Part shown: in pieces, positions 8,885-23,575 of the stretch
Numbering within the stretch: position 1 is the stretch's first letter
Layout of the letters: each line of letters begins with the position of its first letter
Origin: Candidatus Beckwithbacteria bacterium GW2011_GWC1_49_16
GTDB taxonomy: Bacteria; Patescibacteriota; Microgenomatia; UBA1400; CG1-02-47-37
Reading direction: 5' to 3'
Length of the DNA: 64,000 nt
NCBI GenBank assembly: GCA_001029675.1
Contig: CP011210.1
Span: 64,193-128,192 of the forward strand
Position numbers and translations under genes: made by a program
Notes under the pieces: generated by a model
The model's database searches: none
What the model was told of the DNA's origin: nothing
Seen by the model: the letters and a program-made list of their open reading frames with translations, nothing else

Positions 8885-11143
8885 TTAACTGGCAACAGGG
8901 TTGATCGTGTAGGCGGACTCTTGGGGTTCGCCTTTTTCGTTTAAGGGTTTTTCGCAAGTTAGGCAGTAGTCTTTTTGGACCGGGTCTGACAAGATGATGT
9001 GTTCTTGGAGTTCTAAGTTTTCGGTCACTCCCGGCTCGGGAGGACGTTTGGTGGTGGTGTCGATCCAGATGCCGCGTTTTAAGGGCGGTTCCATGGCCGG
9101 CTCGTTGCCACGGATAAAGTATTCAAAGCGGGTTTCGCAAGGTGATTCGGGGTTGGGCCTTAGGCCGGTGATAGTGCAGACTTGAAGGCCGATGATGTTT
9201 TCCGGCCTGACCGGCCATTCGTCGGGTTGATCCTCTAGGATACCGGCCATGATGTCGTGCCAGATGGGGGCGGCGCCGGTAATGCCCGAGACTAAATAAG
9301 GGTGCATCGGGCTATTGTCGTTGTTGCCGACCCAGGCGGCGACCAAAAATGACGGGGTGTAGCCGATAGTCCAGTTGTCGCGCAAATCGTCGGTGGTGCC
9401 GGTTTTGACCGAGACGGCGTGGTTAGGAATGACCAGCTCGCTTGAACCCCCGAAGGCAGCCAGGCGAGCGTTGTTGTCAAGAAGAATATGGGAGATAAGG
9501 TAGGCGACTTCGGGGGAAAGGGCTTTGTCACCGGCTGGAAGCTGGCTAGCTAAATCGATTTGTTCTAGGGTGTTGCCTTTGAAGTCTTCGACTTTGAGGA
9601 TGGGGGTGAGGTCGACTTTTAAACCCTGGTTGGCAAAGACGCCAAAAGCCACAGCCATGTCGACCATTCTGACCTCGCCGCCGCCCAAGGTTAAACTCAA
9701 GCCGTAGTTTGACGGATCTTCCCAAGTATTAATACCCATAGCCGAGGCAGTGGCGATCATGGTTTCGACGCCATTGGCGGCGAGCATCTTGACGGCCGGG
9801 ATGTTGAAGGAGTTGCCTAAGGCAAAGCGCATTTGCACCGGGCCGTGGAAAGCGCCGTCGTAGTTACGGGGGCAATATAGGGGTTGGCCGGAGACGGCAA
9901 AACAAACGGGCACGTCCAGAAACATGGTCGAGGGGGTAAAGCCTTGGCCTAAGCCGGCGGCGTAGTTGACCGGTTTGATCGACGAGCCGGGCTGGCGCAA
10001 ACGGGTGGTGACGTTGACGTTGCCGTCGATTTCCTCATTGAAATAGTCTTTGGAGCCGACCATGGCCAGGATCTCGCCGGTTCTGGGGTGGGTGACTAAA
10101 GCGGCGGCGTTTGAAACGTTCAAGTTTTCAAGCTTCCCGGTTTCGGTGGCGATAACGTCTTCGGTCAGCTTCTGAAGGTCAAGATCCAAAGAGGTAGTGA
10201 CGCGCAGGCCGCCTCTTTCGACCAGCTGCTGGCCGTATTTATCAACCAGCAAGCTTTTGACGTAAAGGACAAAGTGGGGGGCTAAAATGTTTTGGGTTTG
10301 GGGGGCGTAAGTTAAGGGAGCGTCAAGAGCCTGTTGGTATTGATCTTGATCGATGTAGCCGTCTTCGAGCATGCGGCTTAATACCTGTTTTTGGCGGTTT
10401 TTGGCGGCTTCGGGGTCGGGGCCAAAAGGGGAGTAGCGGGTGGGAGCCTGGGGTAGTCCCGCCAAGAGCGCCGCTTCGGCTAAAGTCAGCTCGCGGGCGG
10501 CCTTGCCAAAGTAAGTTAAAGCTGCCTGCTCGATGCCGTAGGCAGTGCCGCCGTAGGGGACGTGGTTTAAATACATTTCTAAGATGTCGTCTTTAGAGTA
10601 GCGAACCTCGGTGGCAAAAGCCAAGATAGCCTCGCGGATTTTTCTTTTGATGGTGCGTTCGGGGGTTAAAAGCGTGGTTTTGACCAGCTGCTGGGTAATG
10701 GTGGAGCCGCCTTGGAGGTTACTCTTAAAGACGATGTTGACGGCGGCCCGGGTGATACCTTCCCAGGCAAAGCCGTGGTGGCGGTAAAAGTTTTTGTCTT
10801 CTATCGCCACGGTGGCATTTTTGACGTAGCCAGGGAGCCCTTCAAGTTCAATCGGGGTGCGATTTTGGTCGGCAAAGATTTCGTAAAGTAACTTCCCGTT
10901 TCGATCCAGAATTTTAGTGGAGACGGGGAAGTTACCGGCAGCCAGCCGACCCGGGGAGGGAAGGTCGTGGAAGATGACAAAGGTAGAGTAAAGACCGACG
11001 AGGATTGCGAGGCCAACAAGAAGAGCCTTTTTAGGCTGGGCACGATAGAATTTTTTAAGCCTTAAAAGGATTTTTTGCCAGAATTTCTTTTGGAGAAGTT
11101 TCTTTAAGTCTTTAAATTTTGGCATGGGAGTATTATAGTACAC
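8885..11143 (-). CDS. PBP1A-family bifunctional penicillin-binding protein, second paralog
   Basis: 752 aa. EDKNFYRHHGF and GGSTITQQLVKT GT51 motifs. SSIKP, SFNIP, KTGTTDD transpeptidase motifs. C-terminal extension of ~100 aa. Confidence 0.9.
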   Translation of the reverse strand: MYYNTPMPKFKDLKKLLQKKFWQKILLRLKKFYRAQPKKALLVGLAILVGLYSTFVIFHDLPSPGRLAAGNFPVSTKILDRNGKLLYEIFADQNRTPIELEGLPGYVKNATVAIEDKNFYRHHGFAWEGITRAAVNIVFKSNLQGGSTITQQLVKTTLLTPERTIKRKIREAILAFATEVRYSKDDILEMYLNHVPYGGTAYGIEQAALTYFGKAARELTLAEAALLAGLPQAPTRYSPFGPDPEAAKNRQKQVLSRMLEDGYIDQDQYQQALDAPLTYAPQTQNILAPHFVLYVKSLLVDKYGQQLVERGGLRVTTSLDLDLQKLTEDVIATETGKLENLNVSNAAALVTHPRTGEILAMVGSKDYFNEEIDGNVNVTTRLRQPGSSIKPVNYAAGLGQGFTPSTMFLDVPVCFAVSGQPLYCPRNYDGAFHGPVQMRFALGNSFNIPAVKMLAANGVETMIATASAMGINTWEDPSNYGLSLTLGGGEVRMVDMAVAFGVFANQGLKVDLTPILKVEDFKGNTLEQIDLASQLPAGDKALSPEVAYLISHILLDNNARLAAFGGSSELVIPNHAVSVKTGTTDDLRDNWTIGYTPSFLVAAWVGNNDNSPMHPYLVSGITGAAPIWHDIMAGILEDQPDEWPVRPENIIGLQVCTITGLRPNPESPCETRFEYFIRGNEPAMEPPLKRGIWIDTTTKRPPEPGVTENLELQEHIILSDPVQKDYCLTCEKPLNEKGEPQESAYTINPVAS

Positions 11144-11152
11144 AAAAAGGCT

Positions 11153-11776
11153 ATGGTTGATCCGAAAACGCTAAAGTATAAGAATGTGACCATTTCTGGT
11201 CTTCCCGGGGCGGGGTCGTCGACATTGGGGCTAAGTCTTTCGCGCGTTTTGGGCTGGGAATATTTTTCGGGCGGAGATTTTATGCGCCGTTATGCCGTGA
11301 AGCGGGGACTTTACGACCAAAGAAAGCGGGCGCACCACTCGGCAGCGGTTTACAGCGGCAAGTTTGATCGGAGAGTTGATTATCGCCAACGGGAGACGCT
11401 TCAGAAAAAAGAGGGAAAGATTTTGGATTCGTGGCTGTCCGGGTTTATGGCTCAAGGCTTAGTTAAAGTGTTGAAGATTTTGGTTTTTTGTAATAAAGAT
11501 TCGCTTCGGGTCGACCGGTTGGTTAACCGGGACAACACTTCGGTGGAGGAAGCCAAAAAACACATGTTTGAAAGAGAGAGGGATAATTTTTCCAAGTGGA
11601 GCCGGATGTATAAAAAAGAATGGGATGAGTGGCTGCCGGCAAAGACCAGAGGGGCGAGAAAAGGCAATTGGCTTAACTTTCATCACCCCGGGCTTTATGA
11701 CTTGGTGATCGATACCTACGCGGTGAGCAAAGAAAAGTCGCTTAAGCTGACGCTTGACGCTTTAGGATATAAATAG
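11153..11776 (+). CDS. cytidylate kinase-like P-loop NMP kinase family protein
   Basis: 207 aa. Walker A SGLPGAGSST near the N-terminus. Resembles the archaeal-type CMP kinase / cytidylate kinase-like family. Confidence 0.55.
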   Translation: MVDPKTLKYKNVTISGLPGAGSSTLGLSLSRVLGWEYFSGGDFMRRYAVKRGLYDQRKRAHHSAAVYSGKFDRRVDYRQRETLQKKEGKILDSWLSGFMAQGLVKVLKILVFCNKDSLRVDRLVNRDNTSVEEAKKHMFERERDNFSKWSRMYKKEWDEWLPAKTRGARKGNWLNFHHPGLYDLVIDTYAVSKEKSLKLTLDALGYK

Positions 11777-11789
11777 GTATATATAAGGT

Positions 11790-12719
11790 ATGAGAAAACA
11801 ACGGGGCGGACTAACGCTTTGGGCAATAATTTTGGGGTTGGCGATAAGTGCTTTGGTTTTGAACGTGTCTTACGGTCGCGCCCAGGAAGAACCTTTTGAT
11901 TCCACTGGCGAACAGCAGCTAGATTTGGTTCAGGGTGAAGCGACGGGCTCGGCGATGACAGTTGAAGCGGCGGCTCAAAGTGAAGGGGTGGAGTATTATC
12001 TGCCTTACCCCGGAGTGTTGCCCGACCACCCGTTGTATTGGCTCAAGATGATTCGCGATCGGGTGCAGTTGTGGTTGACGACCAAGTCTTTGCCCAGGGC
12101 GGAGAGATTGCTACTTTATGCTGATAAAAGGTTGGGAGCGGGCTGGGCGCTTATTGAGGGGGGCAAGGCCGACTTGGGGGTGACGACGATTACCAAAGCG
12201 GAGAAGTATTTGGAGAGAGCTTTGACGGAAACAACGAGCTTAGGAGACGGTGGCGACGAGGTGAGGTTTAAGAAGAGGCTTGGTCAGGCGGCTTTAAAAC
12301 ACGCCGAGGTGATCGATAAGCTTAGGGGGAGGGTGGACGAGCTAGACCGGGCGGCATTGGATGAGGTGATGAGGGTGCCCGGCGCCGTGACGGAAGAGCT
12401 TGAGGCAGCGGCGATGGAAAAGGAAAAGATGGAAGTAAGGGTGAGGGTGGAGTTTAGTGAAACAGAAGTGGTCGAAGGGCAAGTTAGAGCAGAGACGGCT
12501 TTGGAGGCGTTAACAAGTTTAGCGGATCAAGAAGGTTTTGAGGTGACGACCAAGATTTATGATTTTGGCAGCCTGGTGGAGGCGATTAACGATGTTGCCA
12601 ACAGCGCCGACAAGGCATGGATTTATTTTGTCAACGATAAGGCGGGAGAGGTTGGGGCGGGGGATTACCGGCTTAGCGCCGACGATGTGGTCGAGTGGCG
12701 TTATGTTGAACCGGTTTAA
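11790..12719 (+). CDS. secreted/membrane-anchored protein with DUF5667-like N-region and C-terminal DUF4430 (transcobalamin-like) domain
   Basis: N-terminal hydrophobic segment. PYPGVLPDHPLYWLK block typical of DUF5667 proteins. C-terminal KAWIYFVNDKAGEVGAGDYRLSADDVVEWRY fits the DUF4430 pattern W-Y-VNG...G...L-DGD-I-W-Y. Confidence 0.5.
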   Translation: MRKQRGGLTLWAIILGLAISALVLNVSYGRAQEEPFDSTGEQQLDLVQGEATGSAMTVEAAAQSEGVEYYLPYPGVLPDHPLYWLKMIRDRVQLWLTTKSLPRAERLLLYADKRLGAGWALIEGGKADLGVTTITKAEKYLERALTETTSLGDGGDEVRFKKRLGQAALKHAEVIDKLRGRVDELDRAALDEVMRVPGAVTEELEAAAMEKEKMEVRVRVEFSETEVVEGQVRAETALEALTSLADQEGFEVTTKIYDFGSLVEAINDVANSADKAWIYFVNDKAGEVGAGDYRLSADDVVEWRYVEPV

Positions 12720-12726
12720 AAGATAA

Positions 12727-13266
12727 ATGGCGGGTCGGTTTTTCTTGGTGATTTTATTAGTTTTGGCGGCGATAGCCGAGAGGCTGTGGTTTGATTTGGG
12801 GCCAAACGTTGAGCTGGTGACTTTGGCGGGAGTAGTTTCCGGGATGATTTTGGGGAGAAAGTGGGGGGGAGTGGCGGGGGTGATCGCAATGGTTATTTCT
12901 GATTTGGTGATCGGCAACACGGTGATCTTTTGGTTTACCTGGTCGGCTTTTTTGGTCATCGGCGCCGGGGGAGAGTGGTTGCGGTCTTTTACGGGATTAG
13001 GGCGGATTGCGGCCGGTGGAGGCTACGGCCTGGCGGCGGCAGTATTTTTTTATCTTTATACTAACTTGGGAGTTTGGTTGGTGGGCAACTTGTACCCGCC
13101 GACATTTGCGGGGCTGGCGAAGAGCTACTTAATGGGATGGCCGTTTTTTAAGATTCACGCGGCAAGCAGCGTTCTGACTTTGGTGGCCGGGTTGACGGCG
13201 GCAGAGCTAGTCGGTACAGTATTTACTGCCAGCAAGAGCTGGTTAAATTTAACAATTAAAGACTGA
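12727..13266 (+). CDS. small polytopic membrane protein, candidate ECF-type S component (substrate-capture subunit)
   Basis: 179 aa, ~5-6 predicted TM helices rich in G/A/L/V. Sits immediately after the DUF4430 gene, an arrangement known for CbrT-type S components. Identity is inferred. Confidence 0.35.
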   Translation: MAGRFFLVILLVLAAIAERLWFDLGPNVELVTLAGVVSGMILGRKWGGVAGVIAMVISDLVIGNTVIFWFTWSAFLVIGAGGEWLRSFTGLGRIAAGGGYGLAAAVFFYLYTNLGVWLVGNLYPPTFAGLAKSYLMGWPFFKIHAASSVLTLVAGLTAAELVGTVFTASKSWLNLTIKD

Positions 13267-13442
13267 CGATTCGCCTTTAGGGTGTGAAGCCATTGTCCCC
13301 ACCTAAGTGTGCCAATTTTTGGCGGGGGTGAGAAGGCTTTTAAACTCGCGGGAACCAGGCGTGATTCCTGGGCTATGCCGTAGCTGTTACAGCCAGAAGA
13401 CCGGCCTTAGAGGGGGTAAAGCAGTCATTTCCCGAGCAGGAA

Positions 13443-15134
13443 GTGAGGCGATTTTTTGTGGGCGTAGAATTTGATATCAGGGCCAGTTTAGCGGCAGCGA
13501 CAAAGGCATTTGACCAGTCCGTCGCCAGCGGTTGGCGGGCGATTAAACAAGAGGGGAAAAACCTATTCACAAGGGGTAAAGAAATAAGCGATCCTTGGGG
13601 GGCATATTTTAAAACGCCACTAGAAATAAGGCTCGATTCTCAAACTGGTAAAAGGAAGATATTTTGGCAAGGCTATGATCGTTCGGTCAGCGCCTCGATG
13701 CGACGCCATGCCGCGTGGCTAAGGCTTAATGGGGCAACTAAAGAAGAGATAGGCAAGGCAAGGGCGGAGTTATCGGCATGGCAGGGGTTGGAGACAGTTA
13801 TTCTAGGCCTAGAAGAAGGTGAAGCAGTACAGTTTTTGGCATTGCGAAGTTTAGATTCTAACGATGGTGTGGCCTTACAGCAGGTTAGCTTGAGAAATGG
13901 ACGCCTGGCGTTGGAATCACAGTTGTTGCCGTTTGATCGACCCGAGCAAATAGACAAATTTATTGAGAGCGTTGAATTTATGGGAGAAAGTTTAGAAATT
14001 AACCAGGCCGAAACCGATGTGGACCTGTTGGTATTTTGGGCGGTTAAGGGTGAAGCGATTGATTTTAAGCAGGATGTGCCTAAATTGATTGGGGCGGCGA
14101 CGAGAGCCGAGCAGCTGCCAACGATTCAGTCGAGACAGGCAGTGGTTGGTGATGTGCCTGAAGTATTAGCGGCGAACCCATTAGAAGACAGGGTGGTATC
14201 GGCTAAGCCGACGAGCTTTTGGTTTGAAATGGCGGCAGGGGTGAAAATTGCTTCAAGGTCCGACCCTGAAGCGGCGGAAGCGGCGGAGTCGGAAACGATA
14301 GTTTTGGATCGTCCAGAAGTCACGCCGGTTGTGTTTGCGGCAACCTCTGGGAAGATACAAGAAAGGGAAGTGATGGAGGGAGTTAGACCTGTGGTGGCAG
14401 TAAAACCTGTGTCGGCGGTAAGCCCTGCGTCCCGGCCCGCGAAAGCTTCTGGAAAAACAGGTGGGCGAGTAGATGTTGAGGCTGAGGCCGGCGTGATGCC
14501 TACGGGATCAGATCCTGTAGGACAACAGCCACCTTCAAGGATAAACCCTGAAGGAATCGAATCAACTCGGCCAGTTGAGCCCGACCAGCCGAAAGTTAAC
14601 CTCGATGCGCCACAGCAAGATTTTGTCCGTGACTTTGTCGATCTGTCTGCGCCTAAACATTCTATGGAAGTTTCTGAAAAAGTGGATGTGGTCAAGGAGC
14701 AGGACCATACGGAAGCTTCCGGAAAAACAGAAGTAGGGCAACTGCGACCTTCAAGGATAAACCCTGAAGTTGTGAAAGTGGAGCCGCCGGTGTGGCAAGT
14801 GGAGCTAGAAGGTTTAAGCTGGCAGGAGATACCGGAATGGAAGTTTGACAACCTGCTGGTGGAAGGGGATTGGGGGTTTTCGGTAGCGGCAGGCTTAACC
14901 AGCCTGAATGAGCAAATTATGACGGCTAAGAGGGCTTTTGAGGGCAGGCAGTGGCCGATTTTTGATTTTTATTGTCAGGTTTCAAACGTTGTGGCAGCAA
15001 CACTTTTTTTGATTGCGAACACATTTTGCCTAGATACACAGGGCTTGATTTTAGCGGAGGAGAAAGTGTTTGAAAAAAGCGGGGGAGTGGTTAGCGGTTT
15101 GACACCCAATTTCTTGAGGAAAAACGAAAGTTGA
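13443..15134 (+). CDS. hypothetical protein with internal repeats
   Basis: 563 aa. The repeated block ASGKT...PSRINPE occurs twice. Pro/Val/Glu-rich central region. No recognisable catalytic motif. Start codon uncertain. Confidence 0.4.
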   Translation: MRRFFVGVEFDIRASLAAATKAFDQSVASGWRAIKQEGKNLFTRGKEISDPWGAYFKTPLEIRLDSQTGKRKIFWQGYDRSVSASMRRHAAWLRLNGATKEEIGKARAELSAWQGLETVILGLEEGEAVQFLALRSLDSNDGVALQQVSLRNGRLALESQLLPFDRPEQIDKFIESVEFMGESLEINQAETDVDLLVFWAVKGEAIDFKQDVPKLIGAATRAEQLPTIQSRQAVVGDVPEVLAANPLEDRVVSAKPTSFWFEMAAGVKIASRSDPEAAEAAESETIVLDRPEVTPVVFAATSGKIQEREVMEGVRPVVAVKPVSAVSPASRPAKASGKTGGRVDVEAEAGVMPTGSDPVGQQPPSRINPEGIESTRPVEPDQPKVNLDAPQQDFVRDFVDLSAPKHSMEVSEKVDVVKEQDHTEASGKTEVGQLRPSRINPEVVKVEPPVWQVELEGLSWQEIPEWKFDNLLVEGDWGFSVAAGLTSLNEQIMTAKRAFEGRQWPIFDFYCQVSNVVAATLFLIANTFCLDTQGLILAEEKVFEKSGGVVSGLTPNFLRKNES

Positions 15135-15198
15135 TACGGTTTGAGTCAGAAATTGGTACTTGACTATTACTACAGACAGCGTGTTTATTTAAGTTTAC

Positions 15199-15214
15199 GC
15201 ACTATACATAGCGC
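15199..15214. promoter_or_regulatory. NrdR-box-like operator upstream of nrdR
   Basis: GCACTATACATAGCGC resembles the NrdR box consensus acaCwAtATaTwGtgt (left half exact, right half partial). Lies 15 nt upstream of the nrdR ATG. Confidence 0.4.
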
Positions 15215-15228
15215 AATTTCTTTCACAT

Positions 15229-15675
15229 ATGAAATGTCCGTTTTGCAGTCACGATGTGTCTTCCGTCTTGGAATCTCGTGACAGTGAAGACGGAGAAGTG
15301 ACCAGGCGAAGGCGGGAATGTGCCAAATGCGGCAAGCGCTTTACCACCTATGAACGCCTGGAGGGGCCGGCCTTATCGGTAATCAAAAAGGACGGCCGCA
15401 GGGAACCTTTTGACAGAAATAAAGTCCGCCGGGGAGTTATCCGCGCCTGCGAGAAGCGGCCGATTACGCCGTCGCAAATAGAGGCGGTGGTCGATCAAGT
15501 CGAGCGGGAAATGCTCCGGAAAAAAGACAACGAGGTCGAAAGCCAGGCAATAGGCAAGGCGATTATGCGGCGGCTTAAAAAGCTGGACAGGGCTGCTTAT
15601 GTTCGGTTTGCCAGCGTCTATATGGATTTTGCCGATATAGACGATTTTGCCAGGCTAATTAGAAAGAGTAAATAA
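15229..15675 (+). CDS. nrdR: transcriptional repressor NrdR
   Basis: 148 aa. N-terminal zinc ribbon CPFC...CAKC followed by an ATP-cone. Immediately precedes the RNR gene. Confidence 0.9.
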   Translation: MKCPFCSHDVSSVLESRDSEDGEVTRRRRECAKCGKRFTTYERLEGPALSVIKKDGRREPFDRNKVRRGVIRACEKRPITPSQIEAVVDQVEREMLRKKDNEVESQAIGKAIMRRLKKLDRAAYVRFASVYMDFADIDDFARLIRKSK

Positions 15676-17982
15676 ATGACCAAAATGATGTCGTCACAAC
15701 TGACCTTTTATCCACATGAGAGTGGGTTGGTGGATAAAGGGATTAATGGAGAAAGAAAGGATGAGGGCGGCAACGGCGAGGTAAAGCCCGCCTTTGAAGG
15801 CGAGGCGAGGCAGGTGATGGCCAGGTCGCAAGCTGGCTGGGACGTTGCCCGCATGAAAAAAAGAATGAAATTGACGGAAAGGCGCCTGGCTAATGGTTTG
15901 GGTAAGGCGGTGGCCAAAAGGACGATTTTGCGGCCAGGGGAGACCTGGGTGGATGTAGCCGAGCGGGTCGCCCGCGGCAACACCAGCTTGATCGGTAAAG
16001 GCCGACAGCAGCATCGAAAAGAGGAATACGAGCTTCTAAAAAAACACATTACCAACGCCACTCTACTGATGAGCGGCAGGCATCTACAGCACGGAGACGA
16101 GACGCAAGTGAAACGTAACATGGAGGTGTTTACTAACTGTTCGACGGCTTCGGCGTCTTTTCTTTTGTTCTACCTGCTTCTGAATGGTTCTGGGGTGGGC
16201 AGAGCTTACGACGACGACATGTGCGTGGTGGATTGGGACTATATGCCGATAGTCCGCTGCGTTTTAGACGAGAAACACCCGGATTTTGTTTGGGGTGAAG
16301 ACGAGTCGGTCAAAGAGGCCAGGCATAAATACGGCAAGGTGTATTGGTTTGAGGTGCCCGACACCCGTGAGGGCTGGGCCCAGGCGACAGAAAAGATGGA
16401 GGTAATGGCTTATGAGAAAAAATACAAAGACGATGTTTTGGTGATCGATTTTTCCAAAGTGAGGCACAAGGGGACCAAGATCCACGGCATGCAGGATCGC
16501 CCGGCTTCGGGTCCTAAACCTTTAATGAAAGCGATTGCCAAAGTGGCGACGGTGAAGAATGCGCGATTGCCGAAGTGGAAACAGGCGATGTACGTGGACC
16601 ATTACTTGGCCGAGTGTGTTTTGGTCGGAGGCGCAAGGCGCGCGGCCAGAATCGCTACCAAATTTTGGACAGACCCGGACATTTTAGACTTTATTGATAT
16701 TAAGCGGGGCGGGTTTTTGTGGAGCGCCAACAACTCGGTCGCGGTGGACGAGAAGTTTTGGCAGCAAAAGACCAAGCACGCCAGAAAGGTATTGACGGCG
16801 ATTGCTCATGCCAGCTACCACCACGATACGGGCGAGCCTGGGTTTGTCAATCAACACCGCTTGGTGCAAAACGACGACAAGTTTGCCGGCTACTTTAACG
16901 GTAAGTACGCGGAGAGCAAAAAGTACCAGGTGGGTAAAATCACCCGAAAGATGTTGGCGCGCTTGGCCAAAAACGCCTCGAGTAAAGTGTATATGCAGAT
17001 TCCCAACCCTTGCGGCGAGATTACGCTTAATATGTTGGGGGCTTATTGCGTTATTGGCGACGTGGTGCCGTTTCACGCCCCAGACGTAGATACGGCCGAG
17101 GAGGCATTCAGGGTAATGACTCGGGCTCTGATTCGAGTTAACACCATGGACTCGCTTTATCGTAAAGAGGTAGAAAGAACCAACCGGATCGGGGTAAGCC
17201 TGACCGGGATTCACGAGTTTGGTTGGAATGCTTTTGGCTACGCTTTTCGCGATCTAATCGATGAGGAGAAATCGCGTGATTTTTGGATGACGCTAGCCCG
17301 GTTCAAGCGGGCGGTGGTGGACGAAGCCGAGCGCTACAGCCGGGTTTTGGGAGCAACGGTGCCGCACACCAACACCACGATCAAACCGGCGGGGACGACG
17401 TCAAAACTTTTTGGGCTTTCTGAAGGAGCACACTTGCCGGCGATGAGGGAGTATATTCGTTGGGTGCAGTTTAGAGAAGATGACCCCTTGGTGGCAAGCT
17501 ACCAGAAGCAGGGTTATCCGACGCGCCAGCTTAAAAGCTACAACGGGACGACGGTAGTGGGTTTTCCGACCCAGCCGACTATCTGCCGGCTGGGGATGAA
17601 CGGTAAGTTGGTAACGGCCGGGGAGGCGACTCCCGAAGAACAATACCGCTGGTTGATGTTACTGGAGAAATACTGGATTGTGGGCGTGGACGAGGATGGT
17701 AACCCTCTCCCCGATACCGGCAACCAGGTTAGCTACACCCTCAAGTACAAGAAAGACAAGGTTAGCTTCAAAAAATACAAGGCGCTTTTGAAGAAATACC
17801 AATCAAGGGTGAAGTGCTGTAGCCTGATGCCCCAACAGGACTCGACCGCCTATGAGTATCAACCGGAGGAGCCGGTAACGGCAGGGCAGTTTATGAAGGC
17901 CTTAAACGAGATTACCGGAGAGCTGGACGAGGATATTGATCTTGAAGCTTTAAAGTGTGAGTCGGGGGCGTGCCCGATATAG
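15676..17982 (+). CDS. nrdJ: ribonucleoside-triphosphate/diphosphate reductase, class II (adenosylcobalamin-dependent)
   Basis: 768 aa monomeric RNR. Active-site loop NPCGEITL (thiyl-radical Cys, Glu). No adjacent small-subunit gene. Directly downstream of nrdR. Confidence 0.8.
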   Translation: MTKMMSSQLTFYPHESGLVDKGINGERKDEGGNGEVKPAFEGEARQVMARSQAGWDVARMKKRMKLTERRLANGLGKAVAKRTILRPGETWVDVAERVARGNTSLIGKGRQQHRKEEYELLKKHITNATLLMSGRHLQHGDETQVKRNMEVFTNCSTASASFLLFYLLLNGSGVGRAYDDDMCVVDWDYMPIVRCVLDEKHPDFVWGEDESVKEARHKYGKVYWFEVPDTREGWAQATEKMEVMAYEKKYKDDVLVIDFSKVRHKGTKIHGMQDRPASGPKPLMKAIAKVATVKNARLPKWKQAMYVDHYLAECVLVGGARRAARIATKFWTDPDILDFIDIKRGGFLWSANNSVAVDEKFWQQKTKHARKVLTAIAHASYHHDTGEPGFVNQHRLVQNDDKFAGYFNGKYAESKKYQVGKITRKMLARLAKNASSKVYMQIPNPCGEITLNMLGAYCVIGDVVPFHAPDVDTAEEAFRVMTRALIRVNTMDSLYRKEVERTNRIGVSLTGIHEFGWNAFGYAFRDLIDEEKSRDFWMTLARFKRAVVDEAERYSRVLGATVPHTNTTIKPAGTTSKLFGLSEGAHLPAMREYIRWVQFREDDPLVASYQKQGYPTRQLKSYNGTTVVGFPTQPTICRLGMNGKLVTAGEATPEEQYRWLMLLEKYWIVGVDEDGNPLPDTGNQVSYTLKYKKDKVSFKKYKALLKKYQSRVKCCSLMPQQDSTAYEYQPEEPVTAGQFMKALNEITGELDEDIDLEALKCESGACPI

Positions 17983-18010
17983 GATATTAGGAATTAGCTT
18001 CTAGTTTCTA

Positions 18011-18640
18011 GTGAAGTTATATTTAGCCTCAAGTTCCCCCCGCCGGCCCAAGTTGTTAAAGTGGTTTGGTTTACCCTTTGCGGTAGTTGACCACGGTTTT
18101 GACGAGGAGAGTATCGAAGCGGCCGACTCGGAAACGCTGGTAGGCCAGCTGGCTTTAAACAAGGCCTATTCGGCCGCCGAAACGATAGATAAACCGGCCT
18201 TGGTGATCGGTTCTGATTTGGTCGTTAGCCTCAATGACCACTCTTGGAGCAAGCCGGCCACTCTTGAGGAAGCCAAGTTTATGCTCAAAACTTTAGTCGG
18301 CCGGATGCATACCATCATGTGCGGAGTAGCCGTCTACGACACTGCCAGCGAAAAGGCGGTGATGAGTGTTGCTAAAACTGACGTCTGGATGAAAGCGTAT
18401 ACAGATGAAGTTATTGAGAAATATCTAAAACAGGTGCCGGTTTTAGATCGCGGTGGAGCCTACGGGATTCAGGATGAGATAGAAGGCTATGGCAGTTTGG
18501 TTAAAAGCTTTTCCGGGGGAATTACCACGATAATTGGCCTGCCGCTTCACTACTTAGAAAACTTGCTTTTGGAGTTTGGCGTCAAACCCAAAAAAGACTG
18601 GCGGCAAAAGTGTTTTGAGGAGACGGGGTATGAGTATTGA
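18011..18640 (+). CDS. maf: Maf-family nucleoside triphosphate pyrophosphatase
   Basis: GTG start. LASSSPRR N-terminal Maf signature. 209 aa. Confidence 0.85.
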   Translation: MKLYLASSSPRRPKLLKWFGLPFAVVDHGFDEESIEAADSETLVGQLALNKAYSAAETIDKPALVIGSDLVVSLNDHSWSKPATLEEAKFMLKTLVGRMHTIMCGVAVYDTASEKAVMSVAKTDVWMKAYTDEVIEKYLKQVPVLDRGGAYGIQDEIEGYGSLVKSFSGGITTIIGLPLHYLENLLLEFGVKPKKDWRQKCFEETGYEY

Positions 18641-18674
18641 CACACCAGTGGTATTATGGTATGTTTAGTATGAT

Positions 18675-18929
18675 ATGAGCCAAGTGGTCACTACCAATTT
18701 ACGCATAGAAAGGGCCGACTGGTTGCAGATTAAAACCATGGCGGCCGAGTTGGGCATGAGCGTGAATAAGTTTATCAACCAGTTAATCAGAAGAGTCACC
18801 ACCAAAGAACAGTTGGGGGTGATCAACGACTACCAAAACGCCAGTATTTGGGAAGAGTTGCCCAAGTTAGCGAAAATCAAGAATAAACCCGGCAAATTGA
18901 GTGCCGATGACGAAATCATCTATGCCTGA
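18675..18929 (+). CDS. ribbon-helix-helix antitoxin (VapB/CopG-like)
   Basis: 84 aa. N-terminal beta-strand then helix pattern (RIERADWLQIKTMAAELGMSVNKFINQLI). Stop overlaps the start of the downstream PIN gene. Confidence 0.55.
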   Translation: MSQVVTTNLRIERADWLQIKTMAAELGMSVNKFINQLIRRVTTKEQLGVINDYQNASIWEELPKLAKIKNKPGKLSADDEIIYA

Positions 18930-19332
18930 TTCGGTATTTATCGATACAGGTTTTTTTAAGGCACTGGTAGATGAAGACGATGATTTTTACCGCAAGGCGG
19001 TAAAAACCTGGCAGAAATTTAGAAAAAAGGAAACAGTTTTAATCACCAGCAATTTCATTATTGATGAAACACTGACGGTAATAAGAGTTAAATGTCGCCT
19101 GGAAAAGGCCTTAAAATTCCGTGACCTGTTAGCCGAGAGCGGCGACGTAATAAAAATTGTCAGAGTGACCGTGGCCGACGAGGCCGGCGCCTGGAAGTGG
19201 TTTGTGAAAGATTGGCGGAGGTTGTCTTTTACCGACTGCGTGTCGATGGCCTTGATGGAACGATTGGGTGTGAACATGGTTGCCGGATTTGACCAGCATT
19301 TTACCAGGGCGGGGTTTAAGTATGCCCACTAA
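18922..19332 (+). CDS. vapC: PIN-domain ribonuclease toxin VapC
   Basis: FIDTG N-terminal acidic motif, SFTDC and FDQHF C-terminal acidic residues of the PIN fold. ATG overlaps the antitoxin stop (ATGCCTGA). Confidence 0.7.
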   Translation: MPDSVFIDTGFFKALVDEDDDFYRKAVKTWQKFRKKETVLITSNFIIDETLTVIRVKCRLEKALKFRDLLAESGDVIKIVRVTVADEAGAWKWFVKDWRRLSFTDCVSMALMERLGVNMVAGFDQHFTRAGFKYAH

Positions 19333-19984
19333 GGATAGTCAGCCCGAAAGGCGAGTACCCGAAGAGCTGGAACAGGCATTTGTGGATCTGCTTGAGCCGG
19401 TAGTAACCCAAATGGTAGCCGATGGGACGGAGGAGGCGAGTTTGTATAAACACCCTCACCCTAGAAGCGAGGTTCCTGATTGGTATGACCCAATTGGAGT
19501 GATTACTAATTTAGATCTTAGAATTCAGGATCCAAAAGAATGGAGAAAAGAACAGGTGGACAATGTAATAAAGGGTAAAGCAAAAAGGCCAAGCGTAAGG
19601 GATTTTATAAACGACAAGGTAGTTGTTATCGAAATTAAGTCCAGGAGGAGGCCGTCAAAACTAGAGTTTAGGAAGAGACAGGTAGAAAGAGCTCATAGAC
19701 GGGGATCTAGCAATGCCGGACAGGCTGTTCAGGACAAACACGAGATAAATTTACTACTAAGGAAAGAAACGGGGGGCTTAGAACTTTTAGACACTCGTGA
19801 GTATAGAGACTTTAACAGGGTGGTGGAAACGCCGATAGCTTCGGGGAAGCCATGGCTGGGAATGCGGAAAGTTTGGGATTCGGTTGGCTACTGGCCAAGC
19901 TTTGATGCCTTATTAGAAGATTGGCGATCAAGCCCCGAGCTTTTGGGCCGGGTGTTGCCAGTATTAGAGAAGGCGCTTAAATGA
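19322..19984 (+). CDS. hypothetical basic protein
   Basis: ORF with in-frame ATG at 19322 just after the vapC stop. Lys/Arg-rich. No recognisable domain. Confidence 0.35.
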   Translation: MPTKDSQPERRVPEELEQAFVDLLEPVVTQMVADGTEEASLYKHPHPRSEVPDWYDPIGVITNLDLRIQDPKEWRKEQVDNVIKGKAKRPSVRDFINDKVVVIEIKSRRRPSKLEFRKRQVERAHRRGSSNAGQAVQDKHEINLLLRKETGGLELLDTREYRDFNRVVETPIASGKPWLGMRKVWDSVGYWPSFDALLEDWRSSPELLGRVLPVLEKALK

Positions 19985-20248
19985 AATTTGCTTTAGGTTA
20001 TTTATATGCGGCTTGGCGACGGGCGATGGAGTAGACGTCGAGGTTTTTGCATAGTTGCTTATGAGAGATAGCGGTTTTTTGTTTTTTGCCTTGGCGAACA
20101 GCCTTAATTTCCTCGCGGGAGGAGAGGATGTTAAGGGTTTCCCGCCAAGATTCAAGTCCTGGCTTTCTAGTAGTAAGATTTAGTAAATAGCTCATTGAGA
20201 AAGCGTACTATTAAAAGAGTGAATTGTTAAGAGTGGTAAAATAACGGC

Positions 20249-20770
20249 ATGTCAAAAGGATTAGTTTACGTGTTTACCGGTGATGGCAAGGGCAAGACCT
20301 CGGCGGCGTTTTGGACGGGAGTAAGGCTGGCGGCTCGGGGCAAAAAGGTGGCGGCAGTGCAGTTTTATAAAGAGGCGCGCTGGCCGACGGCAGAGCAGGA
20401 TATAAGTAAAAAGTTTAAAAACTTTAAGGTTTATCTTTCCGGCAAAGGGTTTTACAAGTTGCCGACCGACCATGCTAAGCCTGCCGAGCACAAACAGGCC
20501 GCTGAAGCGGGGCTAAAAAAGGCGGCAGAGTTAATCGGTAAAGTGGATCTTCTAATCTTGGATGAGATCAACAACGCCGTCAAAGATAAATTAATTGACC
20601 TAACTGCCCTAATTGACCTAATTTCTAAGCGCGGTCAAACCCACTTGATTCTAACCGGCCGAGGGGCTACAAGGAGAGTCCTTGAAGGTGCGGATTTGGT
20701 GACGGAAATGAAAAAGGTTAAACACCCGTTTGACCAGGGCAAGAAAGCGGTTAAGGGGTTGGATTATTGA
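20249..20770 (+). CDS. cobO: cob(I)yrinic acid a,c-diamide / cob(I)alamin adenosyltransferase (CobA/CobO/BtuR family)
   Basis: 173 aa. P-loop TGDGKGKTSAAFW near the N-terminus and VVQFYKE block, matching the BtuR/CobA YTGxGKGKTTAA signature. Confidence 0.8.
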   Translation: MSKGLVYVFTGDGKGKTSAAFWTGVRLAARGKKVAAVQFYKEARWPTAEQDISKKFKNFKVYLSGKGFYKLPTDHAKPAEHKQAAEAGLKKAAELIGKVDLLILDEINNAVKDKLIDLTALIDLISKRGQTHLILTGRGATRRVLEGADLVTEMKKVKHPFDQGKKAVKGLDY

Positions 20771-20807: not shown

Positions 20808-21245
20808 ATGGCAGACCTGCCCGATGACCAGAATCAACCCGCTCCGCCGGTATCCCCGACGACCCCGGTAAGCGGAGGGACGGCGGCCAAGGAGAAGGAT
20901 AAACCCGCCTTCGCCGAAGGCTCCGGCGAGGCAAGACAGGAAGTCACCCCGATTACCGAGTATACCCGGCAAGTGGATTTGGAACCGGAAGTGGAGAGTT
21001 GGATGGAGAAGCTCGAGAAGGAGGAGGGTAAACTGACTCAGCCGGTGACCGACGATAAAGGCCAAGTGGTACTCGACGACAGCCAAAAGCAGGATAAAAA
21101 ATTTAAGGTGGTGTTGCCTTTGACACGCGACGAGGTAGAAAAGGGTTTGCATCACAAGGTGGTGGATGGGGTGAGGTGGTTGGCGGAGTGGTGCGTGAGA
21201 CTCGTTAAGATGTTTGGCAGTAAAGTTGCCTACAGGAAAAAATAA
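20808..21245 (+). CDS. hypothetical protein (Pro/Glu-rich N-terminus)
   Basis: 145 aa ORF immediately upstream of, and abutting, the coupling-ATPase gene. Confidence 0.35.
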   Translation: MADLPDDQNQPAPPVSPTTPVSGGTAAKEKDKPAFAEGSGEARQEVTPITEYTRQVDLEPEVESWMEKLEKEEGKLTQPVTDDKGQVVLDDSQKQDKKFKVVLPLTRDEVEKGLHHKVVDGVRWLAEWCVRLVKMFGSKVAYRKK

Positions 21246-23575
21246 TGGATCCAATAACTGTCTTTGTTGACCAGGCAAAATACCTGACCTTTTTGGCCTT
21301 TTTGATGGGGGCGAGCCTTGTGGGATTGGTGGGGCTAGTTTACCTTCTGGTTAATTTGATTAAGTTTAAAGACAGGGAGAAGCGGTCGTTGGAGTATGTG
21401 CTTTTGGAAGTAGCCGTGCCAAGAGACAACGAGGTCAAGATCGACGCGGCCGAGCAGATGTTTGCGGCGCTGACCAGCATCAAGAAAGGCGGGGGTTTCT
21501 TGAAGATTTTCAAACCCCAGCAGCACATTTCTTTTGAAATCGTGGGCAGAAAGGAAGACATTAGGTTTTATGTGTCGGCCCCGGACAAATTGAGGGATTT
21601 GGTGGAAAAGCAGATTAATGGGGCTTATCCCGGAGCCGACGTCAAAGAGGTGGAGGAATATAACATTTACACCGATCACGGTAAGGTGGCGTTTGCGGCT
21701 TTGAGACTTACCGGCACCAGCTACATGCCGATTCAGGTTTACAAGGACCTGCCGGTGGATTCTTTAAGTTCACTGACGGCGGCGATGGCCAAAATGGGGG
21801 ATAACGAGGGGGCGGCGGTACAGATAGTCGTGGCGCCGGCAGGAAATTCTTGGCGGAAAGCGGGCAAGGCTTATATCTCAAAGACCAAAAAGACCGAGGC
21901 CGACCCGGAGACGGCCAAGTACAACATTGATCCAAAAACCTACGAAGAGATAGATAACAAGTGTAGTAAGCCCGGTTTTGAGGTGGCGGTGAGAATGGTA
22001 GTTTCTTCCACAACCCGCGAGTCGGCCGAGGCGCATTTAGCTAACATGGTGGGGGCGTTTTCTCAGCTTAGTTCGGATCATAATGGTTTTGCCAAGGCCA
22101 AGGTGAGGCTCAAAAAGATTTTTATGGTCGATTTTATCTACCGCTACCAGCCGGTTTTTGGGTCTAAGAACATTTTGTCGGCCGAGGAGTTGGCGACGGT
22201 GTTCCACTTTCCCAATAAAAGCGTCGAAACGCCGCACATTTATTGGCTAAGAGCCAAGAGGGCGCCGGTGCCGGCTCAAATCCCCAAGGAAGGGCTTTTT
22301 TTGGGTAAAAGCAGTTATCGGGGGACGTCGCGGTCGGTTTTTATCGGCGAGGACGACCGGTTGCGGCACATTTATATTATCGGCAAGACCGGTGTGGGCA
22401 AGTCGGAGTTGATGACCGACATGATACTTCAAGACATTAAGGAGGGCAAAGGGGTGTGTTTTATTGACCCTCATGACACGGTGGAAAAGATTATGGAGAT
22501 GATTCCGCCCGAGCGGGCAGAGGACGTGATTTACTTTAACCCGTCGGATACCGAGCGGCCGATGGGGCTTAATATGCTTGAGGCGTCCACAGAAGAAGAG
22601 AAACACTTTGTGGTGACTTCGATCGTGGGTTTGATGTATAAGCTTTACGATCCGCACAAGACCGGAATTATCGGTCCCCGGTTTGAGCATGCCATCAGAA
22701 ACGCCATGCTGACGGTGATGAGTGATCCGGGAAACACTTTTATCGAAGTGGTGCGGGTTCTGACTGACAGTAAATACGTCCAAGAGTTACTCCCGCGAGT
22801 CAAAGACCCCATCGTCAGGCGCTACTGGACTGATCAGATTGCCCAAACGTCTGACTTTCACAAATCGGAGGTGTTGGACTATATTGTTTCAAAATTCGGC
22901 CGGTTTGTGACCAACAAGATGATGCGTAACATCATCGGCCAGTCGGAGAGCGCTTTTAACTTCAGGAAAGTGATGGACGAGGGCAAGATACTTTTAATTA
23001 ACCTGGCTAAGGGCAGGATCGGGGAGGAAAACAGTAATTTTTTAGGGTTGATTCTGGTACCGAAAATCTTGATTGCGGCCATGAGCCGGCAAGACACGCC
23101 GGAGGAGGAAAGGAAGCCGTTTTATCTCTATGTTGATGAGTTTCAGAATTTTGCCACGCCAGACTTTGCCCAGATATTGTCGGAAGCAAGAAAATTTAGG
23201 TTAGCCCTAACCGTGGCCAACCAGTTTATCGGCCAGGTAGAGGAGGATGTCAAAAACGCCATTTTCGGCAACGTCGGCAGCCTAATCGCCTTCAGGGTGG
23301 GAGTGTCGGATGCTAACTACCTCCAGCATGAGTTTCAACCGACTTTCACCGAAACGGACCTAATTAACATTGAGCGGTTTAACGTCTACGTCAAAACCAT
23401 CGTCAACAACGAGCCGGTGCCGCCCTTTTCCATGGACTTGACTAAAGACATGGGTCAGGCAAAGGCGCAGAGGAACGACAAGGTGGCGGAGATGGTCAAG
23501 CAATTGAGCCGGCTTAAATACGCCAGGGACATGGGTGTGGTCGAGGCGGAGATTTCCCAGCGGGCCAAACTTTAG
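21245..23575 (+). CDS. VirD4/TraG/TrwB-like type IV coupling protein family ATPase (FtsK/HerA superfamily), membrane-anchored
   Basis: 776 aa. N-terminal TM helices. Walker A IIGKTGVGKSE. Walker B-like LYVDEFQNF. Conserved C-terminal arginine block. Confidence 0.55.
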   Translation: MDPITVFVDQAKYLTFLAFLMGASLVGLVGLVYLLVNLIKFKDREKRSLEYVLLEVAVPRDNEVKIDAAEQMFAALTSIKKGGGFLKIFKPQQHISFEIVGRKEDIRFYVSAPDKLRDLVEKQINGAYPGADVKEVEEYNIYTDHGKVAFAALRLTGTSYMPIQVYKDLPVDSLSSLTAAMAKMGDNEGAAVQIVVAPAGNSWRKAGKAYISKTKKTEADPETAKYNIDPKTYEEIDNKCSKPGFEVAVRMVVSSTTRESAEAHLANMVGAFSQLSSDHNGFAKAKVRLKKIFMVDFIYRYQPVFGSKNILSAEELATVFHFPNKSVETPHIYWLRAKRAPVPAQIPKEGLFLGKSSYRGTSRSVFIGEDDRLRHIYIIGKTGVGKSELMTDMILQDIKEGKGVCFIDPHDTVEKIMEMIPPERAEDVIYFNPSDTERPMGLNMLEASTEEEKHFVVTSIVGLMYKLYDPHKTGIIGPRFEHAIRNAMLTVMSDPGNTFIEVVRVLTDSKYVQELLPRVKDPIVRRYWTDQIAQTSDFHKSEVLDYIVSKFGRFVTNKMMRNIIGQSESAFNFRKVMDEGKILLINLAKGRIGEENSNFLGLILVPKILIAAMSRQDTPEEERKPFYLYVDEFQNFATPDFAQILSEARKFRLALTVANQFIGQVEEDVKNAIFGNVGSLIAFRVGVSDANYLQHEFQPTFTETDLINIERFNVYVKTIVNNEPVPPFSMDLTKDMGQAKAQRNDKVAEMVKQLSRLKYARDMGVVEAEISQRAKL

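Follow-up and report, generated by a model that had tools for sequence, protein, structure and literature searches.

We analysed a 64-kb stretch of Candidatus Beckwithbacteria bacterium GW2011_GWC1_49_16 (contig CP011210.1, positions 64,193 to 128,192; hereafter the window, with coordinates counted from its first nucleotide) and conclude that the region between 11790 and 20770 is likely to be a corrinoid salvage-and-use module, a Patescibacteria counterpart of the Lactobacillaceae nrdJ–cbrS–cbrT–adenosyltransferase cluster. A membrane-anchored DUF5667–DUF4430 protein would capture corrinoid outside the cell through an SLBB domain resembling the β domain of transcobalamin, and would pass it to a six-helix DUF6580 protein that would carry it across the membrane. 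CobO would then adenosylate the corrinoid, and an RTPR-like class II ribonucleotide reductase (RNR) would use the resulting adenosylcobalamin to produce deoxynucleoside triphosphates (dNTPs). The RNR operon would be driven by its own promoter, with NrdR boxes and NrdR autoregulation, while a cobalamin riboswitch would, with B12 bound, hide the ribosome-binding site of a single open reading frame (ORF) of 558 amino acids (aa), so that this protein would be made mainly when B12 is scarce. A preliminary description, made from the letters of the DNA, had proposed an uptake, adenosylation and use module here, and each of the genes that it named is present among the ORFs and their translations. The proposal gains support from conservation of the DUF4430–DUF6580 pair, from riboswitches, from linkage of NrdJ and CobO, from the S-component fold of DUF6580 and from the Lactobacillaceae cluster. 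It had overlooked the riboswitch at 13289–13423, the 558-aa ORF that follows it and the NrdR boxes upstream of nrdR. As a prediction, the module is well supported by regulon, neighbourhood, fold and profile evidence. Its features are as follows.

11790–12719, plus strand: predicted extracytoplasmic, membrane-anchored corrinoid-capture protein with a signal-anchor, a helical DUF5667 domain and a DUF4430 domain (Pfam)
12727–13266, plus strand: DUF6580 membrane protein with six helices and the fold of an energy-coupling factor (ECF) S-component, predicted corrinoid translocator (PF20221, E = 2.5e-22)
13289–13423, plus strand: cobalamin riboswitch aptamer, short form (RF00174, 45.7 bits against a gathering score of 31.5, E = 2.8e-8)
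13425–13446, plus strand: expression-platform hairpin with the Shine–Dalgarno (SD) sequence GGAAGTGAGG in its 3′ arm, then a T-run (read from the sequence; terminator-like match)
13458–15134, plus strand: 558-aa ORF without a family, predicted to be riboswitch-controlled (GTG start at MG..EF by homolog alignment)
15160–15214, plus strand: promoter-like TTGACT and two NrdR-box-like palindromes (read from the sequence)
15229–15675, plus strand: NrdR repressor with Zn-ribbon and ATP-cone (TIGR00244, 186.9 bits against 124.65)
15676–17982, plus strand: monomeric RTPR-like class II (adenosylcobalamin-dependent) RNR (TIGR02505, PF21995)
20249–20770, plus strand: CobA/CobO/BtuR-type ATP:cob(I)alamin adenosyltransferase (PF02572, E = 3e-49, P-loop)

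The window is 99.9–100% identical to metagenome scaffolds from the Rifle aquifer and to two metagenome-assembled genomes (GCA_003445575.1 and GCA_001001885.1), and the nearest homologs of its proteins are labelled Candidatus Beckwithbacteria or Patescibacteria; by these matches its source is a groundwater bacterium of the Candidate Phyla Radiation (CPR; Patescibacteria). Most of the larger ORFs across the 64 kb were annotated, and statements below about annotated ORFs refer to these. For comparison, a DUF6580 profile was scanned against one genome per GTDB species, which gave 36 loci, nearly all from Patescibacteria, that we annotated with our own hidden Markov models (HMMs); loci compared with the window are numbered L006, L007 and so on.

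The DUF4430–DUF6580 pair

In about 31 of the 36 species loci, the gene directly upstream of DUF6580 encodes a DUF4430 protein; the exceptions are fragments cut by contig ends plus one Chitinophagales locus. Diverged relatives of the window keep the order cytidylate-kinase-like gene, DUF5667–DUF4430, DUF6580, riboswitch, long ORF, NrdR and RNR, and because this order recurs in diverged relatives the clustering is not attributable to chance. Five lineages carry an Rfam cobalamin riboswitch immediately upstream of DUF4430 (L019, 42 bits; L023, 71; L025, 74; L026, 88.5; L040, 84), and in three of these (L023, L025 and L026) the genes run NrdR–class II NrdJ–CobO–riboswitch–DUF4430–DUF6580. The RNR of L023 scores 760 bits on TIGR02504, and those of L025 and L026 are close homologs by phmmer. 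In 12 loci of a Parcubacteria type, an MtrA-like, pterin-binding and ThyA-like gene stands 0–5 kb downstream of the pair in the same orientation: a dCTP or dCMP deaminase follows the pair, and then comes the MtrA/pterin-binding/thymidylate-synthase-like gene or fusion.

These Parcubacteria genes combine PF04208 MtrA, a corrinoid-binding family, with the pterin-binding DUF4346 and a thymidylate-synthase-like part, as a fusion or an adjacent pair, in L032 (8043–9700) and L035 (9932–11440), and the same genes occur in L028–L030, L036–L039, L041, L042 and L045. From their domain content they look like a corrinoid-protein-based module for deoxythymidine monophosphate; our literature search found no paper joining the terms MtrA-like, DUF4346 and thymidylate-synthase-like. 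The genes downstream of DUF6580 in Parcubacteria were also considered as EcfA or EcfT and rejected as such, being dCTP deaminase, MtrA-like and ThyA-like genes. In the Woesebacteria locus L031, positions 9352–9572 are a group I intron (Rfam RF00028, 56.7 bits), about 1.8 kb downstream of DUF6580.

The protein encoded at 11790–12719 starts with a hydrophobic anchor (KD19 2.3) and joins the two domains that the preliminary description had named, a DUF5667-like envelope domain and a DUF4430-type C terminus. HMM scans place PF18915 at aa 75–183 (E = 7e-12, 46.1 bits against a cutoff of 27) and PF14478 at aa 235–306 (E = 1.1e-11, 45.4 bits against 23.8). The preliminary description knew of no account of this arrangement; it is unpublished, but it is not rare, being found in hundreds of Patescibacteria proteins. 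Homologs of the window protein number more than 800. An N-terminal signal or anchor is present in all of the approximately 34 DUF4430 orthologs. Only in the window's clade is the domain fused to DUF5667; the other DUF4430 proteins are about 150 aa long. Searched with phmmer as a single sequence, the 309-aa protein had no useful match in the PDB. The DUF4430 profile weakly matched 3U7Z (E = 0.026) and the β domain of transcobalamin-1 (E = 0.4), and hhalign aligned the window DUF4430 with a Lactobacillus plantarum DUF4430 protein at 95.3% (E = 2e-8). DUF4430 is an SLBB domain akin to the transcobalamin β domain, and the window protein is, by homology, the counterpart of Lactobacillus CbrS; cobalamin binding is its predicted function. 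Our literature search found no paper on DUF6580 or DUF5667, nor any tying DUF4430 to CPR bacteria.

Bacterial transcobalamin-like SLBB proteins, from organisms lacking B12 synthesis, have been predicted to scavenge B12 (Burroughs et al. 2007, PMC1796856). The window resembles those systems in encoding an exported or anchored SLBB/DUF4430 protein together with membrane transport genes. Their operons usually carry CbiO-like and CbiQ-like (ECF A/T) genes and often an α/α-toroid partner, whereas the module described here has neither and its partner domain is DUF5667.

The adjacent membrane protein (12727–13266) had been likened to ECF S-components such as CbrT. Its fold and a remote match to CbrT bear out the likeness, but the protein does not belong to CbrT's Pfam family: CbrT itself matches PF12822 (E = 2e-13), whereas the window protein matches only PF20221 (DUF6580), and ECF-type models hit it faintly and below cutoff (PF07155, E = 0.07; TIGR04518, E = 0.009). 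An AlphaFold2 model built from a 61-sequence alignment has six helices (pLDDT 94.9). In a Foldseek search of the PDB with this model, ranks 1–17 were all S-components (BtuM, FolT, RibU, ThiT and PanT; TM 0.5–0.66), the top matches being BtuM with cyano- or hydroxocobalamin (8C7P and 8OVV; TM 0.64, probability 1.0, 20% identity). A 23-sequence DUF6580 profile searched against all PDB sequences retrieved a sole chain, CbrT (6FNP_A, E = 3.1e-4), over nearly its full length, and hhalign paired DUF6580 with an L. plantarum CbrT homolog at 77.5% probability (E = 1.9e-5). CbrT was reached by profiles only, single-sequence phmmer against the PDB giving nothing useful, and neither phmmer nor hmmsearch retrieved a BtuM chain from the PDB at E ≤10, so that the likeness to BtuM is one of fold only. 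We conclude from profile and model comparisons that DUF6580 is a distant and separate branch of the S-component superfamily whose nearest characterized relatives are the two B12-specific ones, CbrT and BtuM.

BtuM of Thiobacillus denitrificans is a solitary protein of S-component fold that imports B12 without an ECF module and has a cobalt-ligating cysteine (PMC6072759). Like BtuM (6FFV, 8C7P and 8OVV), DUF6580 is a small six-helix protein with no ECF module adjacent. BtuM differs in having no DUF4430 partner and in occurring mostly in Proteobacteria, alongside BtuB.

The closest parallel to the whole arrangement is found in Lactobacillales. CbrT lies in an nrdJ–cbrS–cbrT–pduO cluster, and ECF–CbrT has been characterized in Lactobacillus delbrueckii (PDB 6FNP; PMC5997447). 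Chain A of 6FNP, the cobalamin S-component, matches PF12822. A CbrT sequence search of annotated plasmids found clusters on L. plantarum pLp900-2, with nrdJ (RTPR), an adenosyltransferase, a 'DUF4430 domain-containing protein' and an 'ECF transporter S component', and on a Lactobacillus intestinalis plasmid, with nrdJ, DUF4430, S component and adenosyltransferase. Because of these annotated clusters, we take CbrS to be the DUF4430 protein. Lactobacillales and the window therefore both cluster an RTPR-type class II RNR, an exported DUF4430 protein, an S-component-type protein and a corrinoid adenosyltransferase, and both place a small exported DUF4430 protein directly upstream of a six-helix membrane protein of about 180 aa; the DUF4430 domains are homologous and the membrane proteins distantly related. 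They differ in that the window membrane protein is DUF6580 rather than PF12822 and no EcfAA′T was seen in the annotated ORFs, and in that the window's clade has the DUF5667 fusion, NrdR and an inserted, riboswitch-controlled hypervariable ORF. A cobalamin riboswitch is part of the window locus, whereas none was detected in the two Lactobacillaceae plasmid clusters.

The ribonucleotide reductase and the adenosyltransferase

The preliminary description had identified the product of 15676–17982 as a monomeric class II RNR on the strength of its NPCGEITL loop and the lack of a β subunit, and profile comparisons point to an RTPR-like class II enzyme. The protein aligns with positions 31–723 of the 724 in TIGR02505 (E = 2e-72; 244.5 bits, below the cutoff of 340), carries the class II insertion domain PF21995 (50.1 bits against 27) and has the L. 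leichmannii RTPR 1L1L as its sole PDB sequence match (6e-39). Its translation contains NPCGEITL and a C-terminal C…CESGACPI, and it is 27% identical to L. plantarum NrdJ over 596 aa, with the same CExGACP tail. Among the annotated window ORFs we saw neither a PF00268-type gene for a β subunit nor an RNR of class I or class III. Genes for cob/cbi biosynthesis were likewise not seen there, in keeping with the earlier statement that no de novo cobalamin synthesis is visible. In the comparative set, the RNRs tested in the loci of types A and B are class II by TIGR02504, L009 aside.

In relatives of the window, NrdR is followed by class II NrdJ paralogs in tandem arrays of two or three (L006, 10172–17432; L008, 13291–20271; L010–L015). 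Inteins that carry LAGLIDADG endonuclease domains split some of these paralogs, and an ATP-cone is present in one.

The gene at 20249–20770 was likewise correctly read as CobO/BtuR. It matches PF02572 over its full length (167.9 bits against 25.7) and has the P-loop GDGKGKT, and it scores 144.5 bits on the NCBIfam equivalog TIGR00708, below the cutoff of 167.75. Membership of the family is clear, and adenosylation of corrinoid would be the corresponding activity.

The cobalamin riboswitch and the variable ORF behind it

The riboswitch follows the DUF6580 gene, separating the transporter genes from nrdR, and is a short form of the aptamer in which 4 nt take the place of 73 consensus positions from the model's 3′ half. 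Riboswitches occupy the equivalent place in L006–L011, L013–L016 and L021 at Rfam gathering scores, and in L012 by our own model only; two weak riboswitch-like matches to our model R1 in L018 fell below Rfam gathering scores and were not counted. Across 13 instances, aligned by fitting to the model and hence in a manner that favours the structure, 92% of cells are paired and 10 of 16 pairs show compensatory double changes, which none of 500 shuffles reached; slid-register controls gave 40–57% paired. The minimum free energy (MFE) z-score of the region is 0.25, which is not significant and is uninformative for a riboswitch.

The hairpin directly behind the aptamer (13425–13446) places the SD 9 nt before the GTG start at 13458. 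It is conserved over the 13 loci with compensatory changes at five of its six pairs, it is present in both the MFE and the centroid folds, and the SD and start codon sit exactly at this regulatory hairpin in 13 of 13 loci. Inspection by eye for a kissing loop between the loop of the aptamer hairpin at about 13356–13372 and that of the SD hairpin found no convincing complementarity. In the window and in L009, a T-run after the hairpin gives it a terminator-like look. We predict from this layout that bound B12 blocks translation through the hairpin, and possibly transcription too; the SD-sequestering architecture points to an OFF switch.

Classical cobalamin riboswitch regulons (RF00174/RF01689) comprise transport and biosynthesis genes and B12-independent isozymes. 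The window resembles them in having a canonical aptamer followed by an SD-sequestering hairpin, and in sister lineages the riboswitch stands before the predicted transporter. The target in the window's clade, unlike those of classical regulons, is neither a recognizable transporter or biosynthesis gene nor a known B12-independent isozyme.

This target, the 558-aa ORF, matches no Pfam or NCBIfam family. Its AlphaFold2 model consists of an α/β N-domain (approximately residues 10–220, pLDDT about 90), about 260 disordered residues and C-terminal helices, and Foldseek found no credible relative. The N-domain family comprises 37 clusters in 1.84e9 representative proteins and is N-terminal in all matches but one, which is probably truncated. 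We rejected the notion that the ORF is an artefact of a purine-rich strand, given the conserved N-domain family and the confident AlphaFold2 fold. An origin in a defence system or a phage is likewise unsupported, PADLOC and PHROGs returning nothing for eight versions of the ORF.

The slot behind the riboswitch is always filled by one ORF, of 437–659 aa, which always adjoins DUF6580 and is absent from the lineages with a riboswitch before DUF4430. What fills it varies. The window, L006, L007, L009, L012, L014 and L016 share one type of N-domain, L008, L010 and L015 have an unrelated second type, and L011, L013, L018 and L021 have singletons, while a C-terminal segment of the form 'IPEW … hydrophobic LxNT' is common to many slot ORFs. 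No Pfam family matches any of these proteins. L006 and L012 are 99.7–99.8% identical over 13.5 kb save for about 0.93–0.99 kb without detectable nucleotide similarity, which runs from the 3′ end of the riboswitch to approximately codon 305 of the ORF (L006, 7989–8916; L012, 7557–8543). L011 (3793–6030) and L014 show the same replacement pattern within flanks that are about 87% identical, their C-terminal motif being better conserved (94%) than those flanks. These two comparisons lead us to conclude that the N-terminal part of the ORF is replaced by recombination while the C terminus is held constant.

Our best guess is that the 558-aa protein is an accessory factor for B12 acquisition during starvation: B12-repressed expression, adjacency to the transporter and rapid diversification together suggest a starvation-induced acquisition or interaction factor. 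A cytoplasmic accessory role is equally possible. The more specific proposal that the protein is a cytoplasmic, tail-tethered partner of the transporter (accepting or chaperoning B12, or standing in for the missing ECF energizing module) rather than a surface- or host-directed factor draws on the lack of an N-terminal signal (KD19 ≤1.4), on a C-terminal helix that is borderline hydrophobic (KD19 up to 1.75 in several versions), on the constant position beside DUF6580 and on B12-repressed expression, which suits an uptake accessory. We consider this proposal unlikely, however, since sequence-unrelated N-domains in one slot and cassette replacement between 99.8%-identical genomes would be unusual for a housekeeping transport subunit; moreover, the ORF is missing where the riboswitch precedes DUF4430, and it shows no ATPase motif or known fold. 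We give as low a probability to a combined reading, in which the riboswitch of this clade has come to control a novel class of protein that is induced by B12 starvation and has a cassette-exchanged N-domain and a conserved C-terminal targeting or anchoring helix. Cassette exchange of this kind is typical of arms-race proteins or of proteins that recognize variable partners, and in an episymbiont the protein could be a host- or surface-directed factor for corrinoid piracy. It might be exported without a signal peptide, an ATPase resembling type IV secretion system coupling proteins being encoded 6 kb downstream. DUF4430 and DUF6580 would separately form an ECF-independent importer.

The ORF might instead be a passenger or leader, with the riboswitch regulating the RNR operon downstream. 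Riboswitch and ORF do stand upstream of RNR genes in every locus of the window's clade, in L009 these are the class III genes nrdDG, a classical target of B12 repression, and the T-runs in the window and L009 would suit termination. Such an arrangement is nevertheless improbable. Repression by B12 of a B12-dependent RNR would be counter-productive, and only L009 among the tested loci has an RNR of another class; the SD and start of the ORF are tied to the hairpin throughout, and the N-domain is a genuine conserved fold. A conserved promoter-like element and two palindromes, furthermore, separate the ORF from nrdR. NrdR regulons are marked by paired 16-bp palindromic boxes about 31–32 bp apart in the nrd promoter. 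The window has a degenerate palindrome at about 15168–15181 and CACTATACATAGCG at 15200–15213, with centres about 32 bp apart, which we take to be NrdR boxes by their likeness to the consensus rather than by model scoring. The pattern TTGACG-CACTAnnnnTAGTG…CACTAnnnnTAGTG is conserved upstream of nrdR in L006, L007, L010, L011, L013–L015 and L018. Because TTGAC(G/T) and two CACTAnnnnTAGTG palindromes intervene, nrdR and the RNR gene most likely form a unit of their own, with control by the riboswitch most likely limited to the ORF.

Other substrates, the surroundings of the module and its significance

Several observations weigh against corrinoid as the substrate of the pair, or limit how far the assignment extends. 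Corrinoid binding and transport by DUF6580 and by the CPR DUF4430 proteins are predictions from sequence and structure models. DUF6580 fails the Pfam and NCBIfam S-component models, and its links to CbrT and BtuM are modest (E = 3e-4 and Foldseek E = 0.05). In neither of two DUF6580 alignments is there a Cys or His among the invariant and near-invariant columns, so that BtuM's cobalt ligation, through a cysteine that finds no counterpart here, is not shared. The annotated window ORFs include neither EcfT nor an EcfA pair, and no ECF module was found among the neighbours checked in about 40 loci, so that these surroundings offer no energy source for transport. No riboswitch was detected in about 20 of the 36 loci, and in the window's own clade the riboswitch does not precede the transporter genes. 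L009 carries class III NrdDG in place of a B12-dependent RNR, and heme import has been proposed for a related ECF operon of Lactobacillus sakei that encodes transcobalamin-like proteins. Finally, the DUF6580 protein of the Chitinophagales locus L044 (6971–7516) has no DUF4430 partner, riboswitch or B12 neighbours; it scores 147 bits on the Pfam DUF6580 model, far above the CPR proteins. Outside the CPR, DUF6580 may have another substrate or context, and the lack of B12 context in L044 limits our functional inference to the Patescibacteria clade.

A substrate of the pair other than B12, be it a tetrapyrrole such as heme, a folate or pterin, or a (deoxy)nucleoside, with the clustering due to a general island of deoxynucleotide metabolism, is very improbable: nucleotide enzymes do abound among the neighbours (cytidylate-kinase-like, RNR, Maf, dCTP/dCMP deaminases, ThyA-like, NUDIX and DeoC), FolT structures take ranks 3–9 in the DUF6580 fold search, the L. 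sakei operon pairs an S-component with transcobalamin-like proteins, and DUF6580 lacks a conserved cobalt-ligating Cys, but a cobalamin riboswitch directly precedes the pair in five lineages, each linked neighbourhood type holds a corrinoid-dependent protein (NrdJ or MtrA-like), with CobO adjacent in three, the top sequence and fold matches are the cobalamin-specific CbrT and BtuM, and DUF4430 belongs to the family of the B12-binding β domain. On the corrinoid reading, DUF6580 may act by itself, as BtuM does, or together with an ECF module encoded elsewhere. In the former case DUF4430 and DUF6580 may be a binding protein and a solitary S-component that together form an ECF-independent importer, an arrangement that would be undescribed.

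Two further genes adjoin the module.

11153–11776, plus strand: cytidylate-kinase-like gene (PF13189, E = 1e-12)
18011–18640, plus strand: Maf nucleotide pyrophosphatase (PF02545, 4e-43; TIGR00172, 127.7 bits against 117.15)

The cytidylate-kinase-like gene keeps its upstream place in L006, L008 and L010–L016 and is probably co-transcribed with the next two genes, the gap being 13 nt. Between Maf and CobO, the module is interrupted by a VapBC-like toxin–antitoxin pair (18675–19332; an 84-aa ORF and a PIN-domain protein) and by an ORF of approximately 220–234 aa without a family match (19280–19984). Downstream of CobO, after a small unannotated ORF, 20808–23575 encodes a 776-aa membrane ATPase with weak matches to TrwB_AAD_bind, TraG-D_C and DUF8128, models of type IV secretion system coupling proteins; it recurs near DUF6580 in L009 (17158–19880) and L020 (1886–4665).

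In the remainder of the window, the annotated ORFs are central metabolism, cell-wall, tRNA and mobile-element genes. The segment 24621–28458 contains tRNA-Ile (anticodon TAT), then a nucleotidyltransferase, a minus-strand tyrosine integrase, a second cytidylate-kinase-like gene, helix-turn-helix proteins and tRNA-Met, and may be an integrated element. A strong positive GC skew (0.12–0.33) extends evenly over all 64 kb, with most genes on the plus strand. At 48769–52152, on the minus strand, GC falls to 0.38–0.44 and AT skew is negative; this segment encodes a protein with sigma-70 regions 2 and 4 (a 1127-aa ORF, with a called gene of 1034 aa).

On profile, fold and neighbourhood evidence, DUF6580 can be assigned a predicted role in B12 import in CPR bacteria, and the B12 regulon of these bacteria would include an unexplained, hypervariable member. 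The assignment provides a testable function, corrinoid import, for DUF6580 and the CPR DUF4430 proteins, which are widespread in Patescibacteria, a large, reduced and mostly uncultured group reliant on scavenged cofactors. It would extend the cbrS–cbrT logic of lactobacilli to a distant phylum with another S-component family, possibly without an ECF motor, and so bears on how S-component proteins can act alone. The predicted riboswitch-controlled gene falls outside the usual categories of the B12 regulon and is diversifying unusually fast. If B12 supply does gate dNTP synthesis in these bacteria, this could inform strategies for their co-culture.

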